64,000 nucleotides of DNA from positions 33,585 through 97,584 of the forward strand of contig JAZNOH010000085.1 of the NCBI GenBank assembly GCA_045580715.1, written 5' to 3'. The translations under genes and the position numbers were made by a program. Source of the stretch: Clostridia bacterium (lineage in GTDB: Bacteria; Bacillota; Clostridia; UBA1381). A model generated the notes under the pieces. That model was not told the origin of the DNA. It ran no database searches and worked only from the letters and a program-made list of their open reading frames with translations. Every line of letters begins with the position of its first letter. Within the stretch, counting starts at the first letter, position 1. This document shows positions 766 to 36,855 of the stretch, in pieces.

Positions 766-2016
766 ATGAGCTTACAATCTATTACGAATTTAAATGTTGA
801 TTTTTATGATAAAAAATATATATTAATTAACGCAAAGCAACTTGACAAAAATTCAAGATTTATTTCAGTTACTTGTTACAATCACGGCGAACCCTATCCT
901 ATTAATTCTGGTGAACATTCGGCATATATTAGATATAAAAAATCGGATGACCATAGTGTTTTTAATTTTTGCGAGATAAATTACCAAGGTAAGATAACAG
1001 TCGAGCTAACAGAGCAAATGCTCGCATCTGATGGAATTTGTTATGCAGATTTAGTGATAGTAAACAAAGGAAGTGCAAGCGTAAATACCGATACTGGTGA
1101 AATTGTTGCGATAGACAACGCATCAATTTTGTCTACTATGACATTTTGCATTGATGTGTCTGAAACGGCTGTTGTGAATTCCGAGATTGAATCTTCATAT
1201 GAATTTAGTGGTCTTAACGAAGCTTTAGAGAAGGCTGAGGCAGAATACACAGAAGTCATCTTAACGGCAAAATCTTACGCTGTTGGTGGCACTGATATGA
1301 GGGAGAATGAAGATGTTGACAACGCCAAGTATTATTATGAACAATCTCTCGAAAATGCAAATAATGCCGCTGCAAGCGAATTAAATGCTGCCAATAGTGC
1401 GACTGCCGCCGCGACAAGTGAAGCCAATGCTTTAACAAGCGCAGACAAAGCCGCCATAAGTGACATCAACGCATCGGTTAATGCTTTATCCGCTTCTGCT
1501 AGTGCTTCAAGCGCAGAAACAAGTGAAATTGCTGCAAAGGGTTATGCAACTACTGCTCAAAATAGTATGAACTCTGCTGTTAATAGCGCAACATCGGCTT
1601 CTACAAGTGCTGCAAATGCGTATAATTATTATCTTCAAACAGAGGCGATAACCAATGGTTTAAACGGAGCATTTCATCCAAAAGGCACATGTTCATTTGG
1701 TGAATTAATGAGCGCAATAACGAGTGGTGAACTTGTTTTAGCCGCAGGCGATTTATATCATATAAGCGACAATTTTGTAACAGATGAGTCGTTTAGATGT
1801 GGCGCTGGCGTTGAGTATCCTGCTGGTACAAATGTTTATTATACATCGGATGGTTGGCTTGATTGTCTAGTGGGAACTACTGTTGCAGGTGTTAAAGGCA
1901 ATAATGAAACGAGTTATAGAAATGGCAATGTCAATTTGACTGCCGATAATGTGGGTGCTATACCAACTACAGATATAGCCACTGTTGATGAAGTAACAAA
2001 TTATTTAGGAATATAA
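766..2016 (+). CDS. BppU-like baseplate/tail fibre protein
   Basis: N-terminus LNVDFYDKKYILINAKQLDKNSRFISVTCYNHGEPYP resembles the BppU_N baseplate upper protein domain. Long Ala/Ser/Asn-rich coiled coil. RBS AAGGTGGTGA. C-terminus ATVDEVTNYLGI is shared with the 1197-aa fibre. Confidence 0.7.
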   Translation: MSLQSITNLNVDFYDKKYILINAKQLDKNSRFISVTCYNHGEPYPINSGEHSAYIRYKKSDDHSVFNFCEINYQGKITVELTEQMLASDGICYADLVIVNKGSASVNTDTGEIVAIDNASILSTMTFCIDVSETAVVNSEIESSYEFSGLNEALEKAEAEYTEVILTAKSYAVGGTDMRENEDVDNAKYYYEQSLENANNAAASELNAANSATAAATSEANALTSADKAAISDINASVNALSASASASSAETSEIAAKGYATTAQNSMNSAVNSATSASTSAANAYNYYLQTEAITNGLNGAFHPKGTCSFGELMSAITSGELVLAAGDLYHISDNFVTDESFRCGAGVEYPAGTNVYYTSDGWLDCLVGTTVAGVKGNNETSYRNGNVNLTADNVGAIPTTDIATVDEVTNYLGI

Positions 2017-2035
2017 AGAAAGAGGTGATTTAGAA

Positions 2036-2737
2036 ATGTATGTAATACTTGTGAATGATGATGACACATTGTATGGCTCAAAAAAAGAGCGTATTATGGA
2101 GAAATCGAAGTGTGTAGACAACTTAGTTTTTATCGTTGACCCTATTTATAGAAGCACATATGATATGACGAGTGCGACTGTAATGCTAGAGTATTTGCGA
2201 CCTATCAGCCGCAAGTACGAAACCGAGCTTCTTACTTTGTCTGATGAGAGATATAACGGCTTCCTGCAATATAAATTACCTTTCGATACCAATTTAACTT
2301 CGGAGCACGGCAGTTTGGAGTTGCAGTTGACCTTTGTATATACAGACCTCGATGCAAATGGTAATGGTATTCAGAGAGTCAGAAAGACCTCTCCTACTAT
2401 TATAGAAATTATCCCCATATCGGCTTGGTCGAACATAATCCCCGATTCGGCGCTTTCAAGCCTTGACCAGCGTCTAATAAAGCTGGACTCGGAAATTCGA
2501 GCGCTTGACGAAATGAATCGGATTGTTGCCGATAGCAAGGCTGATAATCTTAGATATAATAAAGACACAAACGAACTACAATTGTTGTCTGGCGAGAAAG
2601 AAATTGGCAACAAAGTAACATTAAAAACTGGCGACGCATCGTTGGATGATGGCGTTCCCGTTGTTGATTTTAATAGTGTTTCAAGCGGCGATTCTTCTGA
2701 TGAAGATGATGACGATGGCAATGTAGTTGAATTTTAA
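2036..2737 (+). CDS. tail-associated protein, function unknown (acidic C-terminus)
   Basis: 233-aa ORF with RBS AGAGGTGA. Tightly packed between tail genes. Ends SSDEDDDDGNVVEF. Confidence 0.6.
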   Translation: MYVILVNDDDTLYGSKKERIMEKSKCVDNLVFIVDPIYRSTYDMTSATVMLEYLRPISRKYETELLTLSDERYNGFLQYKLPFDTNLTSEHGSLELQLTFVYTDLDANGNGIQRVRKTSPTIIEIIPISAWSNIIPDSALSSLDQRLIKLDSEIRALDEMNRIVADSKADNLRYNKDTNELQLLSGEKEIGNKVTLKTGDASLDDGVPVVDFNSVSSGDSSDEDDDDGNVVEF

Positions 2738-2772
2738 AAAATAATTAAATTAATTGAAAGGAGGACAAACCT

Positions 2773-5700
2773 ATGAGTTTATCATTCGAAGACTCTCTGA
2801 AAAATAGTGTTACGAACAATATTGCAACTACGGAAAACGAAATTATTGAAGCGGTTGCCGTAATGAGCGTAGACAATACAAGTATAGATAGTCCTTCAAT
2901 TATGACGCTTGATGAAAGTTATGGAATAGCCGCATATTCTGGCGATGATGGTAGTTGGCAGCAGCATGCTGATTATGTATATTATTCAACCTTCTCTGAT
3001 GACAACATTTCTACCATTAGCGATACAAAAGATATTAATCTTGATGGAAAACAGTTTAACATAACTCAAGAAGAAAACTCTCAGTACATACCATTTGAAA
3101 TGTCGAGATACTATGACGGCTATGATTTGGTTAACGCTGTTATTTCTATTCATTATGAGACCAAGAGTGGACGACACGGTGCTTCCAAACCGATAAATGT
3201 AACCTTTAATAATGAAAAGATTAGATTTGGTTGGTTGGTTGATGCTGGTGCTACTCTTGATGCTGGAAAGCTTAAATTTGAAATTCATGCATACGGTACT
3301 GTAACGGGCAATGATGGAGTTTCTTTAAGTTATGTTTGGAAGAGTAAGAGCAATGATACTTTGAATGTACTTCAATCATTGTGCGATTGTGAAGAAGTGG
3401 TCAATAATATAGACGATACTTGGATACAGGAGTTGGTTACAGATGTTGCCGAAAAGGTTGCAGATGAGATTAAAAATGTTGCCGTTGGCGAACAAGTAAC
3501 GGCTGCTGAAAATGCTGCTGCTTCTGCTAAACAATCTGCTAACGATGCAAAACAATATGCAGAAAATGCGTCTACGGCTGCTACCGAAGAAGTTAATAAG
3601 GTTCTTGAAAATTACGCTACAACGAGTTATGTTGATGAAGCAGTTGCTGGTGTTGATGTTACGGAACAGTTGGCGAGTTATGTACGAACATCTGATTTGG
3701 AAACCAATTATTATACAAAGACTGATACTGAGCAAAGAATTTCAAGCGCCCTTGAAACTTACGCTACTACCCAATATGTAGACAACGCTATTGCAGATGC
3801 CGACATTTCTGGCAAGCTTGAAAATTATTATACAAAAGATGAGACTTATAACAAAACAGAAATAGATACTGCTCTTGCTAATGTAAGTGTTGATTTAACT
3901 GGTTATGCTACAGAAAAATATGTAGACGACAAGGCTGCCACCCTCTCTTCTTCTATTTCTACTAATACAGAGAATATTTCTTCTTTGGGCACGACGGTTA
4001 GCAACTTACAAAGCACTGTTAACTCTATAGACACCTCTCCTCGTCTTACTTATGATGTAGAATATAATGATGCAGAAAATCCTGATGTTGGAGAGAATGT
4101 TTTTGTTTTCTATGAAATTGAAAATGAAGGCGCGGAAAATGAAGTAAAAGAAGCTAAAAAGAAGTTCACTATTGTTGGTGGTTCAGGTGGAGGGGCTACA
4201 AGTAGTTCGTTGAAGATTGGCTATGTGACCACTTCTCCCCTTGTTGTTACAACAAACGACGAAGCAATTATTAAATATACTTTTTCTGGTACCGACTCTT
4301 CTGGTGATGCCGTGCCCGAAGGAACCGCGACTTGGAAAGTGGCTGGCAGAATTGTTGCAACAAACACCGCTCTTGCTGGTGAGAACTCTTTCGATGTTAC
4401 GGAATATCTTTCTGTTGGCACTCAAAAGGTTAACTTGTCTATTGTTGACGAAGCTGGTAGTTTGGTCACAAAAACTTGGACTGTGCAAAAAATTGATGTA
4501 AGACTTGAATCTACCTTTAATGACAAGTTGACTTATCCTATTGGAACCATATCTTTTGATTACACGCCTTATGGTGCTATTTCAAAGGTTGTTCATTTTG
4601 TTCTTGATGGTGTAGAAATTGGTACTGTTACCACCTCTTCTTCGGGTATCCCAATGGCATATGAAATTCCCACACAAGAACATGGTGCCCACTTGTTAGA
4701 GGTCTATATGACTGCTGAAATTAATGGTAATGCGATTGAGTCAAATCATATCGTGAAAGATATTATCTGGTATGATTCTGCGAGTGCCATTCCTGTAATT
4801 AGTACAGTATATCAGAATTTTACTGCAAGACAGTATGATGCCACTAATATTGAATATACCGTATATGACCCCACCACGGAAACTCCCACCGTGGAAATTG
4901 CCATAGATGGAAATGTTGTATCGACACCTACGCTTGATAAGGCTACGAATGTGTATTCATTTAAGACGGATGTTGTTGGTGAACATACTATCACCATTAC
5001 TTGCGGTGAGACTGTCAAGACCCTGATTGCCAATATTACAAAACTTGATATAAATATTACTCCCGTTACTGCTGGTTTAGTATTTGATTTTAATCCTTCT
5101 GGTAAATCAAATAATGATGCTGACAGAGTTTGGTCTAATGACACAGTTGCTATGACTGTATCTGATAACTTTGACTGGGTTAATGGTGGTTATCAGTATG
5201 ACGAAAATGGAGACCAGTATTTCTGTATTAAGGCTGGCACTTTTGCAACCATTGATTATCAATTGTTCGCAGACGACGCTAAGAAGAATGGTAAAGAAAT
5301 GAAGTTGGTGTTTAAGACAACCAATGTTGCAAAACCCGACGCCACATTCCTGTCTTGTATGGACAACACAACTGATTCTGACCATATTGGTATTCAGATG
5401 GATGTTCACGAAGCATTCATTTATGGTCAAGCTGGTAAGTTAGACCTCTCTTATTCTGAAGAAGATATTATTGAATTCGAGTTTAATATCTCTAAGAATA
5501 CAGAAGCAATTCCTATGGTAATGGGTTATGAGGATGGTGTTTCTACTCGTCCTATGGTCTACGACGACTCTTACAACTTTACACAGAATACACCTAAAGT
5601 TATATCTTTGGGTTCTGATTACTGTGATTTACATATATACAGGTTTAAGGTTTATAATACCTCTCTTACCGACAGAGGCATTTTGAATAACTTTATTGCC

Positions 5701-8700
5701 GATGCTCGTAATGCAGAGGAAATGGTTTCTCGTTATGACCGAAATCAGATTTATGACGAAAACCAGAATCTTGACCCCGATGTTCTCGCTGAGAAATGTC
5801 CTTGGTTGAGAGTGTATAAGATTTCTGCCCCCTACTTTACGAACAATAAGAGCGACAAAGTGCCGAATACTACCATTCAGCAGATTTATAAGAATGGCGA
5901 TGTTGTTTTGGACAACTGGACTTGTTACAATGCTCAGCATAGCGGACAAGGTACCTCCTCTAACAACTACGGTGCTGCTGGTAGAAATCTTGACTTTATT
6001 ATGAATAAGTCTGGCATTGACGGTGTAAACCCCTATTTCAAGTTGGGTGACGGAACCGAAGCAAGTGAGATTACTCTGACACGCACCTCTGTTCCCGTGG
6101 CTTATTTAAATGCAAAAGTCAATATTGCTTCGTCTAATAACTTGACAAATGCAATGTTGGCTAATAGATATAATGAGTTTAACCCCTACAACAGACCTTT
6201 TGTGCGTGACGAGGGCGTTGATACGAGCTTCATTAAAGATACTATGGAATTCCATAACTGTGTAATCTTTATTCAAGAAACTAATGAGGATTTGTCTACT
6301 CATAGAGAGTTTGCCGATAATGATTGGCATTTCTATGCAATCGGTAACATAGGCGACTCAAAGAAAACTGATAATACTCGTTTAACAGATATGAACGATA
6401 AGTATGAATGTTGTGTTGAAATTATGGATGTTGAGTTGCCACTGTCTGACTTTCCCATTGATACAATGTATAATGCAATGGGTTACAAGGAAGATGAGAC
6501 TACGCATGAAAAGAAATATATTTGGGTAAAGAATGAAAATCTAGGAATTCTTTATGAAAAGATTGACGGTGAGTATGTCTTAACTACAGATACCGAGGTT
6601 GATTTAACTAAAACTTATTATGTGGATATTCTTGAACACGATGATTTTAGCGAAGATTATACTTATGGTTGGCGTTATCTTTATGAAGGTGATGACGAAG
6701 AGGAAAATGCTGAAGTATTTGATTACTGTAAACAAAAGTGGATTGAACTTTATAGATTTATAACTACTTCTACCGATGAAGAGTTCAAGAATAGATTTGA
6801 TGAGTATTTTGTAAAAGACACTGCTCTCTACTATTACTTGTTTACCACAAGATATTGTATGGCGGATAACAGAGCCAAGAATTGTTTTATACATTATAGC
6901 AAGACTGGAGAAGTTGATGCTGAAGGTAATCCTATTCGCAAGTGGGATTTATCTTGGGGTTATGATATGGATACCAGCTTGGGTCTTAACAATTACGGTA
7001 AACAAGTCTATCGTTATGGTCTCGAAGATACCGATGTTGACGAAAAGGGCGAGGAAGTGTTTAGAGAATCTGATAGTACATTCTTCTGTCGTGTAAGAGA
7101 CCTCTTCCCTGCCGAACTCAAAGCAATGTACAACACTCTTGAGTCTAAGAATGCTTGGCATGCTGAAAGTTTTATCAACAAAGCAGATGAATGGCAGAGT
7201 CAATTCCCCGAAGAATTATGGCGAGTAGATATTGAGCGTAAGTACATTCGTACCTATAACGGCTCCTTTATTAATGGTAAAGGTGATGCTCAGTTCCTTG
7301 TAAATATGGCGAATGGTAAGATGAAATACCATCGTAGACAATGGGAGCGTAGCCAAGAAAAGTATATGGCTTCAAAATATCAATCTTCTATTGCTTCTTC
7401 TGACAACTCCGTATTTAGATGTAGTGTGCCCAATGGTGACTTGGTGGTTCAACCTAATTATAGATTAAAACTTACGCCTTATGCGTATATGTACTTGAAT
7501 GTTAAGTATGGCACACAAAATCCAATTCAATTAAGAGCAGAACCCAATATCGAATACGAAATCCCATTTGATGGCGAAAAAGCTGATATTGTAGATGTTT
7601 ACAGTTCTTCTCTTATTCAAGACTTTGGTGATTTGTCATCTTGTTATGTGGCGACTGCTGATACAAGTAAGGCAAGCAAGGTTAAGAGGTTGATTTTTGG
7701 TAATAGCACTGAAGGCTATGATAACCCCAACTTTACTACTTTGACAACTGGTGCAAACTATCTGTTAGAGGAATTAAATATCGAGAATGTTTCTGGATTA
7801 ACACAGTCTTTGAATTTAAGCGCATTGAATAATTTGCGTGAGTTATATGCTCATGGTTCTAACATTGGCGGTGTTACATTTGCCGATGGTGGCAAGATTG
7901 AAATTGCCGAATTGCCCGCAATTAACGCTCTTACCATGAAGAATTTGATGTATCTTGCAACACTTGACATTACGGACTTGAGTAAGCTAACTACGCTCAC
8001 AGTTGAGAATTGTGACACCGTTGACTTACTTACTATTTTAAATAATGCGCCCAACATTAATCGTGTAAGGATTGTTGGCATTGATTGGTCGCTTGAAGAT
8101 ACCGCTCTCTTAGAGAGATTATATGCAATGAAGGGTATTGATAGGAATGGTTATAATGCCGACCAGTCTGTATTAACTGGCAGGGTTCATGTGCCTGTTA
8201 TTAGACAGCAGCAATTGTATGATTATCAGAATGCATGGTCTGATTTGGAGATTGTGGCAGATACCATTATTGAACAGTTCGCAGTAACATTTATGAATGC
8301 TGATGGCTCTGTTTTGGAAGTTCAATATGTTGATAAGGGTGAGGATGCTGTTGACCCAACTACAAGGACAGATAACCCTCTCTCCCCCACTATTGCAAGT
8401 ACGGTTGAATATGATTTTACTTTTGCTGGTTGGGATTCTGCTTTGACGGATGTATTCAGTGAAAGAACTATCACGGCTATTTATACTGAGTCGCTTAGAA
8501 GTTATACAATTAAGTATGTTTCCAAGGGTATTACGATGCAAGAGACTACTGGTTTATATGGCGAAAATGTGCCTTATACTGGCGTAAGTCCTACTTATAC
8601 TGCGGAAGAAACTGGTTATGTCTACTATCTCTTTAATCGTTGGGATAAGTCTGGGTTTATCGACGGAGACAAGACTGTTAACGCAATATTCGATAAATTC

Positions 8701-31748: not shown

Positions 31749-31837
31749 TGGCGCAGAAAGAGGGATTCGAACCCCCGTGGGTGTTAGCCCTAACGGTTTT
31801 CAAGACCGCCTCGTTGTGACCGCTTCGATATTTCTGC
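31749..31837 (-). tRNA. tRNA-Ser (anticodon UGA), class II, CCA encoded
   Basis: Hand-folded. Acceptor GCAGAAA/TTTCTGC, anticodon loop CTTGAAA, long variable arm, T arm GGGGGTTCGAATCCCTC, 3-prime GCCA. Confidence 0.9.
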
Positions 31838-31842
31838 ATATT

Positions 31843-31928
31843 TGGTGTCGGTAGTGGGACTTGAACCCACACGATATCACTCGCCAGATTTTGAGTCTGG
31901 TGCGTCTGCCTATTCCGCCATACCGACA
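31843..31928 (-). tRNA. tRNA-Leu (anticodon CAA), class II, CCA encoded
   Basis: Acceptor TGTCGGT/ACCGACA, anticodon stem CCAGA/TCTGG with loop CTCAAAA, T arm GTGGGTTCAAGTCCCAC. Confidence 0.9.
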
Positions 31929-31932
31929 TAAT

Positions 31933-32007
31933 TGGTGACTCCAGCGAGAATCGAACTCGCGTTTTCGCCGTGAAAGGGCGATGTCTTAGCCGCTTGACTA
32001 TGGAGCC
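31933..32007 (-). tRNA. tRNA-Glu (anticodon UUC), CCA encoded
   Basis: Acceptor GGCTCCA/TGGAGTC, anticodon loop CTTTCAC, T arm CGAGTTCGATTCTCG. Confidence 0.9.
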
Positions 32008-32106: not shown

Positions 32107-32699
32107 ACATATATAAGTACTCCAACAACCGCTATTGATAAGTAGCGATACGGTATTTTACCCTACTCCGCAGTAGCACACATCCATCTTTAGCATCGCG
32201 TACTATGAGCTACTCATTTAAGGGGTGAGCCAAATCCCACTAAAGAATCTACAACCCGACCTTTTATATGCCGTATATCGGTCAACGGCTATCTTTGTTG
32301 TTGGCTTTAAACGAAATCGCCTTTCGACGAAATCTCAACTCTTCCTACACTTGGATAGGCGAGCAATGATAGTTTTCTTTCGACTTTCGCCTATCGTAGA
32401 ATTGGTTCACTATCAACCTGTTTGTGCCTCTCCCTAACCCCTTCACTCCCTACGCCGAACAAAGGTCTTCATCGGAGTCAACATCATCTCAAGTATGGTG
32501 CTATGAACTGGTCTACCAGTTGTGCAAGATTTGACTACTATTCTGACATATAGACCACGCTTTACACTTATCTATGTCCGTTTTTGTTGTTTGCATAACC
32601 GTCAAGGACGGCATTGTGCTTACCAATGTCTTGGCACATTCGAATAGTAATCTTAACTTCCTTGATTGAGCGCAAGGGAACGCCTATGTCCTTTCGGAC
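32107..32699 (-). ncRNA. 593-nt ORF-free structured region inside the tRNA operon; candidate large ornate ncRNA (ROOL/GOLLD-like class)
   Basis: Flanked directly by tRNAs on the same strand. GC is visibly above the local background and there is no T-loop. Many local hairpins are present, including the GNRA-capped GUCC-GAAA-GGAC, CCAA-GACA-UUGG and UCGUC-GAAA-GGCGA, plus a 9-bp stem at 32354-32362/32387-32395. Confidence 0.6.
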
Positions 32700-32778: not shown

Positions 32779-32853
32779 TGGCAGCGGTTGCTGGATTCGA
32801 ACCAGCGACTGCAGGAGTCAAAGTCCTGTGCCTTACCGCTTGGCGAAACCGCT
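32779..32853 (-). tRNA. tRNA-Gln (anticodon UUG), CCA encoded
   Basis: Acceptor AGCGGTT/AACCGCT, anticodon stem CAGGA/TCCTG with loop CTTTGAC, T arm CTGGTTCGAATCCAG. Confidence 0.9.
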
Positions 32854-32965
32854 ATACAATACCGCCTATAACGGTTTGCTCTATAAAGAACAAGGTTGAT
32901 TTTCACTCGCTTATTATATATAACTTTATTAGTTAAATAATGTTTATTTCCCTTTGACTGTACAT

Positions 32966-33108: not shown

Positions 33109-33594
33109 TCAGGCTTCTATCTTTAGCTGTTCATATTCGTCTTTCTTATTAGTACTTCCAAAACCGCCAACCCTAACATTATCAGTGTTGCCATTGTCTG
33201 CAACCAAGAAGTTAAAGAACGCGCCTTGAGCAATTCTATCGCCCCTCTTAATTGTCTGCGTTTCGTTACTAATATTCTTTAAGAAGACGCCAATGTTGCC
33301 ATCATTACCCTCATTAGAATAGTAGTCTGCATCAATCCAACCAGAAGTGTTTGCAAGCATAAACTTACCACCCATAGAGCTTCTAACATTAATAATCAAG
33401 CATTCATTACTCTTCATATAGGCTTTTATATCAGTCCACACTTTTGCGATGGCATTTGGCTCGATTGTGTAATTATCATTTGCATAAAAGTCATATGCCA
33501 TCGCCCTACTTGAACCTCTGGTTGGCAGAGTTATATCACCCACCGTTTTTCTCTTTTCGTCAATTACAACCTCAAATCCTCTAATTTTATTCAT
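33109..33594 (-). CDS. dut: dUTP diphosphatase (trimeric dUTPase)
   Basis: Motifs PTRGSSRAMAYDF, VRSSMG, GWIDADY, RGDRIAQ, VGGFGST. Confidence 0.85.
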   Translation of the reverse strand: MNKIRGFEVVIDEKRKTVGDITLPTRGSSRAMAYDFYANDNYTIEPNAIAKVWTDIKAYMKSNECLIINVRSSMGGKFMLANTSGWIDADYYSNEGNDGNIGVFLKNISNETQTIKRGDRIAQGAFFNFLVADNGNTDNVRVGGFGSTNKKDEYEQLKIEA

Positions 33595-33595
33595 T

Positions 33596-34162
33596 TTATT
33601 TCCTCGCTATTTTTATTAATTGATTTATACTTATTGACCCTATTGAATTACCTAAAACAATACATAAAAATTTTAGCAAATGGTCTAAATTAAAATTTAA
33701 AAATAAATATGGAAAATCTGCTATGCAATGTTCGTAACCAGACAAGATAAATGTCATAATACAAAATACTGTTATTATTGGTTTTTTACAATAAACCGCA
33801 ACAAACATTAAAACACCACACATTAATCCATATAAAAACAATCCAAAGTATCCATTGGAAAATTTTATGTCTGATACTTCTATTATTCTTTCATAGAATC
33901 CACTTTTCGAAATAGAACAAAAGATTGGAATCATTACACCGATTAAATTGCCAAGTAAAATTATTAATAAATTTTTAATTTCTTTTATCTTAAAGAATCC
34001 AATTTTGCCAGTGTATAGTTTTAAATCACATTCAATAATCACTAATAATGCTATTGAAAATAACATGGAACTTATATATGTATTTTGAACTTGAATCTGT
34101 AATGCAACGCCCAATCCAACTAAAATACCGCTTAATATAGATTGCTTAATAATCATTCCCAT
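33596..34162 (-). CDS. compact formate/nitrite transporter (FNT) family channel-like protein
   Basis: 188 aa and polytopic. FNT hallmarks occur in order: CDLKLYTGK (cf. GAELFTGN), LLGNLIG, LMCGVLMFVAVY, ILSGYEHCIADF (cf. GFEHSIANM), IVLGNSIGS. It overlaps the nrdG stop by 10 nt. Confidence 0.6.
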   Translation of the reverse strand: MGMIIKQSILSGILVGLGVALQIQVQNTYISSMLFSIALLVIIECDLKLYTGKIGFFKIKEIKNLLIILLGNLIGVMIPIFCSISKSGFYERIIEVSDIKFSNGYFGLFLYGLMCGVLMFVAVYCKKPIITVFCIMTFILSGYEHCIADFPYLFLNFNLDHLLKFLCIVLGNSIGSISINQLIKIARK

Positions 34163-34683
34163 AACACTATTTTTCCTTGTTCGAGGGAAGCTTTTACATT
34201 TATCACTCTTTGATTGCTGCTGCCTCTAAATTTCAATGTTAAATTTTTAAGTTCGTCTATGTACTTACCATCAACAAGAATGTCACACAATTCTACAATT
34301 GCCTGTCTATAAACGCTACTTAAATTTAAATTGTCGGTAACGATTGTTGGGAATATCTGCTCTAATGTGTATCCTGTATAAAGCCATATATCTTTTGTAG
34401 GAAACCTTTCTTTAATTTCTCTAATCAACAAATATATAGTTTCCACATTTTCGTCTTCAAGTGGGTGTCCACCAGAAAAGGTAATACCTTGAATGTAGGG
34501 CTTATCTAACGCTTCAAACAACTCCGCTTTGGCAATTTCGTCGAATGGCTTTCCCGAACACAAACTCCATGTTTCTGGATTATGGCACCCCTTGCAATGC
34601 AAGGAGCACCCGCTAACCCAAAGAACCACTCTTATGCCTTCACCATTGGCAATTGATGTCTTTTCTATCTTATGATAATTCAT
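34153..34683 (-). CDS. nrdG: anaerobic ribonucleotide reductase activating protein (radical SAM)
   Basis: CSLHCKGCHN (CX3CX2C) cluster motif. Immediately downstream of nrdD. Confidence 0.9.
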   Translation of the reverse strand: MNYHKIEKTSIANGEGIRVVLWVSGCSLHCKGCHNPETWSLCSGKPFDEIAKAELFEALDKPYIQGITFSGGHPLEDENVETIYLLIREIKERFPTKDIWLYTGYTLEQIFPTIVTDNLNLSSVYRQAIVELCDILVDGKYIDELKNLTLKFRGSSNQRVINVKASLEQGKIVLWE

Positions 34684-36855
34684 TTAATCACCAGCTCCTA
34701 AATGAACATAGCGATTCTTAATTTCTTCTGTGCGCCCCTTATTCCAGAAATTCTCTCCAAGATATCCACAGGTTCTTCTTACTACATTCATCTTGCTCTT
34801 GTCTCTGTTTCCACAATTAGGACAATACCAGTCGAGATTGTCATCAATCATAATCTCTCCGTCATATCCGCATACATGGCAGTAATCAGACTTGGTATTG
34901 ATTTCTGCATACTGAATATTGTCGTAGATATACTGAATTAAAGATAGTACAGCGGGGATATTATTTGTAAGATTAACAGCCTCAACATAAGATATACAGC
35001 CACCACTACTAATTGGATGGAACTGAGATTCAAACTTTAACTTATCGAATGCATTAATGTGTTCTTCAACAAACACATGATAACTATTCGTTAAGAAGTT
35101 TCTATTAGATTCGCCGTCAACTGTGCCCCACCGTCTTACTGTTGCCTGTGCAAACTTCTCTGTAAGACTTTCTGAAGGAGTGCCATAAAGTGCGAAACCA
35201 AGTCCAGTACGCTTCTTCCAATCTAAAACTTTCTTCTTCATATAGGAAACAATTTCAAGAGCTAACTTTTCACCTTCGGGTGTTGTATGTGATACACCAA
35301 GCAAAGCCTTAACACATTCGTACACGCCGATATAGCCAAGTGTAATGGTAGAATAGCCCTCTTGAAGTAAAGGATAAATTGGGGCGTGTTTAGGCAATCT
35401 TGCAATAGCACCGTGCTGCCAATGAATAGGAGATGCATCTGATGTAACATTCTTTAACTTCTCATATCGAAGAAGAAGACTTTCATAACAAAGTTCAAGT
35501 CTTTCATCGAATATCTTCCAAAAGTCCTCAATGCTTCCTTGAGCAGACATACCACAGTCGGCAAGGTTAATAGAGGTAAGACCCATATTAAATCTACCAT
35601 ACCACTTGTATTTGCCTTCTTCATTATTAATATCACCCTTATAAGGCGAGAGCCAAGCTCTACAACCCATACAACCAAATACATTGCCTTCGTAATTCTG
35701 ACGCATATGTTTTGCAGAAATAAAGTCGGGCATCATTCTCTTAGAAACACACTCTGCCGCAAGTTCTGTGATATACCAATACTCACTATCTTCGTGTATG
35801 TTATTCTCGTCAAGAACATAGAGAAGTTTAGGGAATGCAGGTGTAACCCATACGCCAACTTCATTCTTCATACCTTTAATACGCTGACGAATAAATTCTT
35901 CGATAATCATAGCGGTTTCCTTCTCATATTCGGAGTTTTCACCGATATACATAAATACGGAAAGGAAGGGTGACTGTCCGTTGCTGGTCTGGAGTGTATT
36001 TATCTGATATTGGAATGTCTGTACACCATCACGAACCTCTTTGGCAAGACGCTTTGCAACCACCGATTCAATTGCGTCAGCAGTTATAAGATTTTCATCC
36101 CAAAGTTCATGAGCTTCTTCCTCTACTTCTTTTCTGATTATCTCTTCGCTAATTCTTACAAAAGGTGCAAGATGCGAAAGAGTGATAGTTTGACCACCAA
36201 ACTGAGCTGACGCAACCTGTGCAATAATCTGTGTAGCAATGGTACAAGCAGTTCGGAAACTATGAGGTTTTTCAATCATCTTTCCATTGATGACCGTACC
36301 ATTCTGAAGCATATCTTCAAGATTAACAAGACAACAATTGAAACTGTGATTTAGATAATGCCCAAGGTCGTGAATATGAATAATGCCATCTTGGTGAGCC
36401 TGAGCAATATGAGGAGGCAGCATCATTCTAAGAGAAATATCCTTAGAAACTTCTTCGGCTACCAAGTCTCTACAAGTAGAAATCAAAGCTTCATTTTTAT
36501 TTGAGTTCTCAGATAAAGACGCTTTATTAGTGCCGTCAATAATGCCTAGCACTTTGTTGTCAATGGTGTTGTGCTGCCTCTGATATTCTCTTACTGCTCG
36601 ATAATCTTCGTATGCCTTGGCAGTAAGTCTTTGCTTTTTGGAAATAAGCTTATTGTACACCAGCGCTTCGATATCAGATATTGATACTTGCTCAACATCC
36701 CTCAATTCCATTTCGATTTCGTTGGCGATATCATTTGCGATTTTCTCTTTTTCGATGCCGCTACCGTGCTTCATAGCCTTGAGAATTGCTATGCTAATTT
36801 TATCTTTGTTAAACGACACAATATGACCGTCTCTTTTTACAACTGTATTAGCCAT
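34684..36855 (-). CDS. nrdD: anaerobic ribonucleoside-triphosphate reductase (class III)
   Basis: N-terminal ATP-cone (VVKRDGHIVSFNKDKI), C-terminal Zn motif CHVCG...CPNCG and glycyl-radical motif RRTCGYLG. Confidence 0.92.
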   Translation of the reverse strand: MANTVVKRDGHIVSFNKDKISIAILKAMKHGSGIEKEKIANDIANEIEMELRDVEQVSISDIEALVYNKLISKKQRLTAKAYEDYRAVREYQRQHNTIDNKVLGIIDGTNKASLSENSNKNEALISTCRDLVAEEVSKDISLRMMLPPHIAQAHQDGIIHIHDLGHYLNHSFNCCLVNLEDMLQNGTVINGKMIEKPHSFRTACTIATQIIAQVASAQFGGQTITLSHLAPFVRISEEIIRKEVEEEAHELWDENLITADAIESVVAKRLAKEVRDGVQTFQYQINTLQTSNGQSPFLSVFMYIGENSEYEKETAMIIEEFIRQRIKGMKNEVGVWVTPAFPKLLYVLDENNIHEDSEYWYITELAAECVSKRMMPDFISAKHMRQNYEGNVFGCMGCRAWLSPYKGDINNEEGKYKWYGRFNMGLTSINLADCGMSAQGSIEDFWKIFDERLELCYESLLLRYEKLKNVTSDASPIHWQHGAIARLPKHAPIYPLLQEGYSTITLGYIGVYECVKALLGVSHTTPEGEKLALEIVSYMKKKVLDWKKRTGLGFALYGTPSESLTEKFAQATVRRWGTVDGESNRNFLTNSYHVFVEEHINAFDKLKFESQFHPISSGGCISYVEAVNLTNNIPAVLSLIQYIYDNIQYAEINTKSDYCHVCGYDGEIMIDDNLDWYCPNCGNRDKSKMNVVRRTCGYLGENFWNKGRTEEIKNRYVHLGAGD

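Follow-up and report, generated by a model that had tools for sequence, protein, structure and literature searches.

Several RNAs have for years ranked among the best-conserved of bacteria and phages without having a function, including drum, ROOL and GOLLD. The last of these combines a conserved 3′ half with a variable 5′ half. Likewise without an assigned function are the additional RNAs of the phage T4 transfer RNA (tRNA) cluster, which are co-processed with the tRNAs. ROOL and GOLLD assemble homo-oligomeric cages (PMC12286853), and drum has been described as a likely sophisticated stand-alone RNA, of unknown function, that carries a Rho-independent terminator at its 3′ end and is linked to one particular protein whose gene lies close by (Weinberg et al. 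2017, PMC5737381). Here we examine a spacer of 593 nucleotides (nt) between two tRNA genes, located at positions 32107-32699 on the minus strand of a 64,000-nt stretch of DNA (the window) from a Clostridia bacterium (assembly GCA_045580715.1, contig JAZNOH010000085.1). Orphan non-coding RNAs in phage tRNA arrays are a known kind of arrangement, and the new part of this locus is a 3′ domain situated beside a putative diverged drum RNA.

The spacer is non-coding, structured, evolutionarily maintained and composite. We consider it probable that it comprises, instead of one ornate RNA, several non-coding RNA modules that fold independently and form a mosaic. Comparative sequence support points to two of these modules, a diverged drum (32365-32477) and the 3′ domain (32112-32312). 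The parts of the spacer are listed below in the direction of transcription; other loci compared with the window carry L numbers.

32688-32699, minus strand: hairpin GUCC-GAAA-GGAC, directly after the tRNA-Pro CCA; also in L006, L041 and L045
32652-32684, minus strand: 5′ motif with hairpin CCCUUG/CAAGGA (32673-32678 with 32659-32664)
32534-32652, minus strand: module 2, 119 nt, a multi-helix junction with a closing stem of 10 base pairs (bp), predicted by minimum free energy (MFE)
32623-32634, minus strand: hairpin CCAAGACAUUGG (CCAA-GACA-UUGG), within module 2
32478-32533, minus strand: linker with hairpin ACUGG-UAGA-CCAGU (32507-32520); 98% identical in L045; fold z-score +0.1, not significant alone
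32365-32477, minus strand: candidate diverged drum-family RNA (RF02958-like); full-length model alignment, 30.8 bits, E 7e-4
32427-32450, minus strand: G-rich tract
32387-32395 with 32354-32362, minus strand: 9-bp stem
32313-32364, minus strand: linker with two hairpins; fold z-score -2.21
32317-32330, minus strand: hairpin UCGUC-GAAA-GGCGA, the second of that linker
32112-32312, minus strand: conserved 3′ domain; 152.7 bits with covariance model R1 (window in seed)

Protein- and pattern-anchored searches recovered nine distinct homologous elements, all located in tRNA arrays and on the tRNA strand: those of the window, L045 (with L046, from the same near-identical phage and cut before the element), L006 (with L007 and L031-33), L030, L034, L037, L039, L040 and L041. 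When the elements are compared all against all, only the last 135-210 nt are common to every one of them, and upstream of these the elements have no more than scattered motifs in common. Conservation and covariation, both sought in related phage and metagenome contigs, are present. The components of the 3′ domain are as follows.

32297-32304 with 32122-32129, minus strand: helix P1, 8 bp, CCAACAAC paired with GUUGUUGG
32270-32289, minus strand: helix P2, GCCGU-UGACCGAUAU-ACGGC; two compensatory pairs
32260-32269, minus strand: A-rich strand AUAUAAAAGG, which crosses the H-type pseudoknot
32255-32289, minus strand: pseudoknot core, ACCGA (32278-32282) with UCGGG (32255-32259); two compensatory pairs
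32178-32252, minus strand: 75-nt expansion segment between pseudoknot and P3, holding hairpin AUGAG-UAG-CUCAU (32205-32217)
32163-32176, minus strand: helix P3, CUACU-GCGG-AGUAG; two compensatory pairs
Within 32122-32176, minus strand: joining strand J3/4, GGUAAAAUACCGUAU
32130-32147, minus strand: helix P4, CGCUA-CUUAUCAA-UAGCG; one U-A to U-G change

Eight copies were aligned (A2, the alignment that R1 was built from), and ~80 positions proved invariant, including AAAG, AUAAAAGGUC, UGCGGA and ACCGUAUCGCUACU, the last invariant in 8/8 copies. Among the 29 pairs of the proposed structure, 93.1% of alignment cells are paired, compared with 27-44% for slid controls. Seven of these pairs show compensatory changes (one in P1 and two each in P2, the pseudoknot and P3), and 0/500 shuffles reach the observed values; this shuffle control is not a probability, and the covariation counts are suggestive, short of a formal R-scape test. 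The pseudoknot follows the consensus (A/C)C(C/U)GA with UC(G/A)G(G/U), with variants CCCGA/UCGGG, CCUGA/UCAGG and ACCGA/UCGGU. An alternative pseudoknot register (GACC/GGUC) was dropped in favour of the CCGA/UCGG register, which covaries. P1, P2 and P4 are recovered independently by RNAalifold, and an alternative pairing that it offers, UGCGG with CCGUA, in which all positions are invariant, may represent a tertiary contact. P4 is contiguous with the 3′ strand of P1 and would stack on that helix. The domain folds alone with a z-score of -2.44.

Unrelated sequence of 0-100 nt is accepted at one site only, which lies between P3 and the pseudoknot. The 75-nt expansion found there in the window is absent from L045, L006, L030 and L034; L037 and L040 have unrelated inserts in its place, and L041, otherwise a distant element, has an insert that matches it at 96.7% identity. 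R1 yields 137-157 bits on its eight seeds and 65.9 bits on the truncated, non-seed copy in L039. When applied to 44 loci, and over ~530 kb of related loci scanned, the model gave no further copy besides a 28.5-bit match in the tRNA array of L050. This match is a distant one that keeps P2, the A-rich strand and the pseudoknot, the latter with a new compensatory pairing, CCAA/UUGG.

Judged against Rfam, and not against the 10,006 motifs catalogued for short structured RNAs of viruses (csRNAs; PMC10690425), the 3′ domain appears from these comparisons to be a previously uncatalogued pseudoknotted domain of ~135-200 nt. It matches none of 4227 Rfam families at E<=10, the models for preQ1 and other riboswitches included. 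We take its core to resemble the H-type pseudoknots with an A-rich third loop of preQ1-I-type riboswitches: the 5-bp P2, the 10-nt loop, AUAUAAAAGG and the pairing of the tail to the loop produce the same topology. However, the pseudoknot of the 3′ domain is embedded in a larger junction and lies outside a 5′ untranslated region, except possibly in L037. The domain ends 15 nt before G1 of tRNA-Ser in the window and 8-9 nt before the tRNA in L030 and L041. Its downstream neighbour varies among tRNAs for Ser, Glu, Lys and Gln, and in L037 it is the last element before an open reading frame (ORF).

The second module with comparative support aligns with the full 112-position drum model. The score of 30.8 bits in the window compares with 29.3 bits for L045 and 42.5 bits for L040, so none of the three copies reaches the gathering score of 43 (L040 lies half a bit under), and canonical drums score 68.8-70.8 bits. 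The copies in the window and L045 are direct homologs of that in L040, to which they are 78% identical, and the module occurs only in these three homologous elements. In an alignment with three canonical drums taken from the tRNA arrays of phages, these copies were found to keep all the conserved blocks, CGAUGAA, GGAG, AACCA, GAUAGG and CGAAAGAAAAC. In the 3′ half, P2 encloses AACCA...GAUAGG, and hairpin P2a and CGAAAGAAAAC are both present. The eight pairs of P2 and P2a are paired in 97.9% of cells, compared with 25-44% for slid controls, and four pairs differ from canonical drums by compensatory changes (P2 GCGUG/CACGC to GAUAG/CUAUC; P2a U-A to C-G). The 5′ half contains CGAUGAA, GGAG and a hairpin, ACCUUU.../...AAGGGGU, at the position of P1a. 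Posterior probabilities there are 0.3-0.5, five pairs are flagged as non-canonical and P1 has a mismatch; L040 fits better. We therefore treat the module as a putative diverged drum-family member, expected to work like drum, that is formally under the curated threshold.

Canonical drums (69-71 bits) likewise reside between same-strand tRNAs in the phage contigs L048, L050 and L052. The family is described with a terminator, and a weak terminator-like hairpin follows the window module ~35 nt downstream. The window copy differs from canonical drums in the sequence and length of P1a, in the P1 mismatch and in being embedded in a longer, multi-module spacer. A further difference is that genes for RNA ligase and the cREC protein lie beside the canonical drums of L048 and L050 and are absent from the window, where the genes near the drum-like module encode guanylate kinase, dUTPase, a formate/nitrite-transporter-family (FNT) channel and NrdG. 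A link to RNA repair was considered, given that ligase and cREC genes flank the L048 and L050 arrays, and was dropped because the window contains neither a homolog of these proteins nor a KxDGxN motif.

Upstream of the drum-like module, conservation is more local. The hairpin that adjoins tRNA-Pro has an invariant stem and a loop that stays GNRA (GAAA in the window and L006, GUAA in L041, GCAA in L045). The 5′ motif, common to the window, L045, L040 and L034, combines a conserved loop CGC(U/C)(C/U)AAU (CGCCUAAU) with a GUUAA tail. Between sequences, one base pair switches among C-G, G-C and U-A, and 91.7% of its cells are paired compared with 17-50% for slid controls, a comparison that involves four sequences only. 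Module 2, which contains the CCAA-GACA-UUGG and CCGUC-CUU-GACGG hairpins, has an MFE of -32.5 kcal/mol (z-score -3.04; 1/200 shuffles fold equally well). It is found elsewhere only in L045, at 97% identity. The second hairpin of the linker at 32313-32364, together with UUUCGUUU, was detected in a terminator scan as similar to a weak intrinsic terminator, and L006 carries a related hairpin with a U-rich tail. Transcription must read on past this hairpin to reach the downstream tRNAs. Other upstream sequences vary among elements; a GGGGAUGUUCCCC...CUUGGGUUGCC motif of L006, L034 and L041 is without counterpart in the window. L045 (6470-6700) and L040 (~810-1010) share a further non-coding module, CCUUGG-UGUCUGCAGUAAA-CCAAGG ... 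CGCAAGUGAGGAUAUGCG ..., that has a covarying stem (CCUCAGC/GCUGAGG in L040), has no Rfam match and is absent from the window.

All predicted modules fold alone. Closure on conserved helices is seen for the drum-like module and the 3′ domain and closure by MFE prediction only for module 2, and no conserved long-range helix that joins modules appears in the predicted or consensus folds. In L037 and L039, ~90-130 nt separate the 3′ domain from the tRNA before it, and the other modules of the window are missing. L045, the nearest relative, provides a closely matched comparison, as it encodes an identical dUTPase and its shared blocks are 97-100% identical to the window. Relative to the window, it carries an extra ~250-nt module after the GNRA hairpin, shared with L040, and, starting in the linker at 32313-32364, an insertion of ~280 nt that separates the drum linker from the 3′ domain. 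In the 5′ half of that domain it also possesses another allele. This half of the window domain is 96% identical to L039, 94.5% to L006 and 93% to L037, but only 86% to L045, whereas identity to L045 reaches 100% in the 3′ half. These mosaic identities and whole-module insertions and deletions require recombination at and within module boundaries. The stand-alone occurrences of the 3′ domain and the insertions between modules thus define the element as a domain of ~135-200 nt that is placed in a mosaic with a diverged drum.

The sequence-only reading of this DNA had proposed that the spacer belongs to the ROOL/GOLLD class. We searched the 593 nt with cmscan against all 4227 families of Rfam 15 at E<=10, and only drum and two noise matches were returned. 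No match was obtained to ROOL (RF03087) or GOLLD, and equally none to HEARO, transfer-messenger RNA (tmRNA), RNase P or group I intron models within 32107-32699; at gathering thresholds, Rfam reports tRNAs and no other family. As a positive control, a true ROOL in the phage tRNA array of L048 (9002-9570) scores 315.2 bits relative to a gathering score of 99.1. Given the lack of a model match and the strength of this control in a comparable array, the spacer is not ROOL or GOLLD. It shares with these RNAs its length (593 nt versus ~580 nt for ROOL), phage setting, adjoining same-strand tRNAs and unassigned function, and ROOL is found in the same type of array as drum; length, tRNA adjacency and a phage-like region are traits unspecific to ROOL. 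The ROOL model encodes six multistem junctions and nested consensus helices, whereas the spacer is without a global architecture of long-range multistem junctions, and its conserved unit is only ~135-200 nt. Thus, a large structured gap beside phage tRNAs need not be ROOL, tempting as this annotation is. The fallback suggestion of a new large RNA class holds in that a novel domain is present and fails in that no helix unites the 593 nt.

The control locus is a phage contig of 181 kb from IMG/VR, where a canonical drum (3980-4091, 70.8 bits) shares a same-strand tRNA array with the ROOL. Ahead of this array (1653-3200) lie genes for an RNA ligase (PF09414) and for a cREC protein that processes cyclic phosphates (PF20274), and L050 has the same arrangement of ligase, cREC and drum.

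The modules would be transcribed from the promoter of the tRNA operon along with its six tRNAs. Cleavage by RNase P at the 5′ end of tRNA-Ser and processing of the 3′ end of tRNA-Pro upstream of the GNRA hairpin could then free the spacer. Because the hairpin abuts the tRNA-Pro CCA and 8-15 nt separate the 3′ domain from the tRNA that follows it, we infer release by tRNA maturation enzymes, and the spacer RNAs are most likely stable RNAs liberated from the tRNA precursor in this manner. Once free, they would be expected to act in trans, and as a best guess their binding partner would be a protein or the machinery that handles tRNAs. Phages probably exchange the modules as cassettes through recombination in the tRNA array, a process likely to be assisted by homing endonucleases. 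HNH homing endonuclease ORFs lie in the arrays of L006 (8685-9224) and L050 (11902-12390), and two are present inside that of L048. A free-standing HNH-type ORF also resides beside the tRNA genes of L041 (~5200-5630), and the arrays of L006, L050 and L041 carry the 3′ domain or its distant relative. The T4 tRNA cluster likewise contains extra non-tRNA RNA genes, and its homing endonuclease SegB drives preferential, mosaic inheritance of the region (PMC2330249). The two systems differ in that the T4 RNAs are single and small, whereas the spacer comprises five to six modules; the hosts are unrelated and no sequence relationship is expected.

Other explanations were weighed against the same observations. 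It is unlikely that the spacer encodes one multi-domain RNA of ~600 nt, a GOLLD or ROOL analogue that would use the 3′ domain as its core and the 5′ modules as an exchangeable periphery, possibly to form RNA-only multimers like the homo-oligomeric cages of those classes (PMC12286853). The length of the spacer fits such an RNA, as do those of homologous spacers (513 nt in L006, 600 nt in L041, ~1050 nt in L045 and ~590 nt for the L034 element within a tRNA-to-tRNA interval of ~800 nt). Moreover, a spacer located between two tRNA processing sites should yield a primary product that spans all modules, and ROOL, drum and tRNAs share one array in L048. However, each module is self-closing with no conserved helix to bridge them, L037 and L039 precede the 3′ domain with only ~90-130 nt of unrelated spacer, and the sibling phage L045 tolerates inter-module insertions of 250 and 280 nt. 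The 5′ content also cannot be aligned between most elements, and no ROOL or GOLLD model matches.

Quite improbable is a purely cis-acting role in the processing, 3′-end protection or attenuation of the tRNA transcript, with the hairpins and domains working, for instance, as sites where RNases enter or are blocked or as a leaky terminator. The GNRA hairpin is always attached to the 3′ end of tRNA-Pro, a terminator-like hairpin lies at 32317-32330 and the 3′ domain usually stops 8-15 nt before a tRNA, all of which suit this role. A pseudoknotted four-helix domain of ~135 nt with ~80 invariant positions and an invariant 14-mer is nevertheless far beyond known processing signals; furthermore, it occurs upstream of four kinds of tRNA and precedes an ORF in L037, and drum has been described as a likely stand-alone RNA (PMC5737381). 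We give very little credence to the proposal that the spacer is debris or selfish DNA, whether degraded tRNAs, recombination scars, an insertion resembling a miniature inverted-repeat transposable element with CCAACAAC/GUUGUUGG as an 8-bp terminal repeat, or a small protein gene. A patchy distribution, varied array positions and mosaic alleles do suggest mobility, terminal inverted repeats are present and a truncated tRNA-like remnant adjoins the L034 element. Yet compensatory changes in internal helices and the pseudoknot are unexpected for a DNA repeat or debris, the element is always on the tRNA strand, and the AAAG upstream of P1 is invariant with no target-site duplication evident. The gap in the window shows no similarity to the tRNA model, and its ORFs (<=70 amino acids) run into tRNAs and are broken by insertions and deletions between the window and L045.

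Certain points weigh against the mosaic that we prefer. The pattern of constant 3′ and variable 5′ content resembles GOLLD and could here mean one large RNA. The family is small, with nine distinct sequences of which several are closely related, and its covariation counts are suggestive; part of the high identity in the 3′ domain could stem from horizontal exchange of recent date and not from purifying selection. For module 2 and the linkers, a single relative, 97% identical, has counterparts, and their proposed structure derives from thermodynamics. The drum-like module falls below the Rfam gathering threshold, and its P1a hairpin aligns poorly. If efficient, the weak terminator-like hairpin between drum and the 3′ domain would split the unit. 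Finally, we only infer the processing and stability of the RNAs, and likewise their action in trans and their target.

The presence of a diverged drum and the 3′ domain in one tRNA unit, together with canonical drum and ROOL RNAs in like arrays, suggests that phage tRNA arrays commonly house orphan RNAs and serve as a platform for their exchange. A bolder proposal, which we regard as possible but doubtful, is that the 3′ domain represents a new class of phage structured RNA with a sophisticated role (ligand or protein binding, catalysis or RNA-only assembly), and that the arrays are cassette sites where orphan RNAs such as drum, ROOL, RAGATH-type RNAs and the 3′ domain are swapped by endonuclease-driven recombination. 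If true, several long-unexplained RNA classes would share biology linked to tRNAs or to the countering of host defence. Being compact (~135 nt), with its pseudoknot defined and a single site of expansion, the 3′ domain is suitable for structure probing or cryo-electron microscopy. The window and L045 offer natural presence/absence variants in near-identical phages that are suitable for functional comparison.

The genomic setting of the spacer is defined by the following features.

32994-32966, minus strand: sigma-70-type promoter TTGACA-17-TGnTATAAT, 12/12 positions, with TG extension
32779-32853, minus strand: tRNA-Gln(UUG); ARAGORN; Rfam tRNA 66.4 bits
32700-32775, minus strand: tRNA-Pro(UGG), CCA encoded; ARAGORN; Rfam tRNA 70.3 bits
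32010-32106, minus strand: tRNA-Ser(GCU); ARAGORN and Rfam
31933-32007, minus strand: tRNA-Glu; ARAGORN and Rfam
31843-31927, minus strand: tRNA-Leu(CAA); ARAGORN and Rfam
31749-31837, minus strand: tRNA-Ser(UGA); ARAGORN and Rfam

Much of what the sequence-only reading had described agrees with this annotation. ARAGORN bounds the gap between tRNA-Pro and tRNA-Ser(GCU) at exactly 32107-32699, the consensus promoter lies upstream of the tRNA unit, and all six tRNAs are on the minus strand downstream of it, in the same transcription unit as the spacer. The promoter and leader are kept in L045, L006 and L041. As claimed, the gap lacks a credible ORF (none exceeds 70 amino acids on either strand, and the longest on the minus strand extend into tRNAs) and lacks a tRNA T-loop, with no tRNA, tmRNA or T-loop-type match by ARAGORN or by Rfam cmscan at E<=10. 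Its guanine-plus-cytosine (GC) fraction is raised, at 0.432 versus 0.367 for the whole window, 0.29-0.39 for the coding flanks and 0.195 for the promoter stretch. The MFE of the whole spacer has a z-score of -2.36, and 1/100 shuffles fold equally well.

Every hairpin that had been picked out by eye exists. The GNRA assignment is correct for the GAAA loops and not for GACA, which is a GNNA loop. The G-rich tract is real and corresponds to the 3′ sides of P1a and P1 in the drum-like module. The 9-bp stem is present in the window but unconserved, and it was rejected as a conserved feature: it has two uncompensated mismatches in L045, is also not kept in L040, and competes with the conserved drum P2a hairpin.

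The suggested setting in a phage of an anaerobe is borne out by NrdD and NrdG in the phage and by one homologous element on a 155-kb contig of a fecal Clostridia metagenome-assembled genome. The neighbouring genes encode NrdD, NrdG, NAD-dependent DNA ligase, dUTPase, an FNT-family protein and guanylate kinase, and they fit a large phage of an anaerobe. The FNT-family membrane protein (33596-34162, minus strand; PF01226, E 1.5e-17) lies directly downstream of the anaerobic ribonucleotide reductase genes, between NrdG (34153-34683) and dUTPase (33109-33594). Formate is the reductant of class III ribonucleotide reductase, and the phage transporter may thus be an auxiliary gene that supplies this enzyme. 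The nrdD gene of the window (34684-36855) is intact and encodes 723 amino acids. In L045 (664-3911) and also L046, nrdD is split into parts of 304 and 422 amino acids by a 266-amino-acid ORF without a Pfam match, an insertion that resembles an intron or homing endonuclease. At this position a related phage (L056/L057) encodes a ribonucleotide reductase of another class (PF02867, 3012-5978) containing an intein with an HNH domain, and mosaicism is thus as marked in the nucleotide-metabolism block as in the tRNA array.

Homolog recovery depended on the search route. With blastn against INPHARED GenBank phages, the tRNAs match and the spacer yields nothing. IMG/VR scans with four 3′-domain patterns found only three distinct variants, and the single metagenome and genome scans added four real homologs and six chance matches; these collection scans needed exact patterns, and distant members were probably missed. 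Synteny with dUTPase led to 23 IMG/VR loci, among which one distinct locus carries the element. Five of 1,622 dUTPase homologs were looked up (L053-L062), and R1 gave no 3′ domain on L053-L057. Exact look-ups of two downstream window proteins matched no record.

Additional features were observed in the leaders and arrays. Between the promoter and the first tRNA, a leader of ~50 nt (32854-32912, minus strand) with hairpin potential contains conserved UGAAAAUCAACCUUGUUC...AGCAAACCGUUAUAGGCGGU, and counterparts occur in L006 (7882-7932), L045 (6250-6305) and L041 (5168-5215). The L041 leader is ~440 nt upstream of tRNA-Gln, with the end of an ORF in between. At the position where the window has a normal tRNA-Pro, L045 carries a tRNA-Pro-like gene (6389-6462; Rfam 37.1 bits) that has a weakened T-arm and is missed by ARAGORN. 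Rfam tRNA matches that span 117-123 nt in L050 (12402-12524), L048 (4523-4639) and L034 (5478-5595) suggest intron-containing tRNA genes. A RAGATH-27 RNA (88 bits) lies in the tRNA array of L002 (9787-9872), and L011 contains a RAGATH-18 RNA (220-286, 66 bits). In L002-L005 (8945-9016), a predicted suppressor tRNA with anticodon UUA would read the UAA stop codon.

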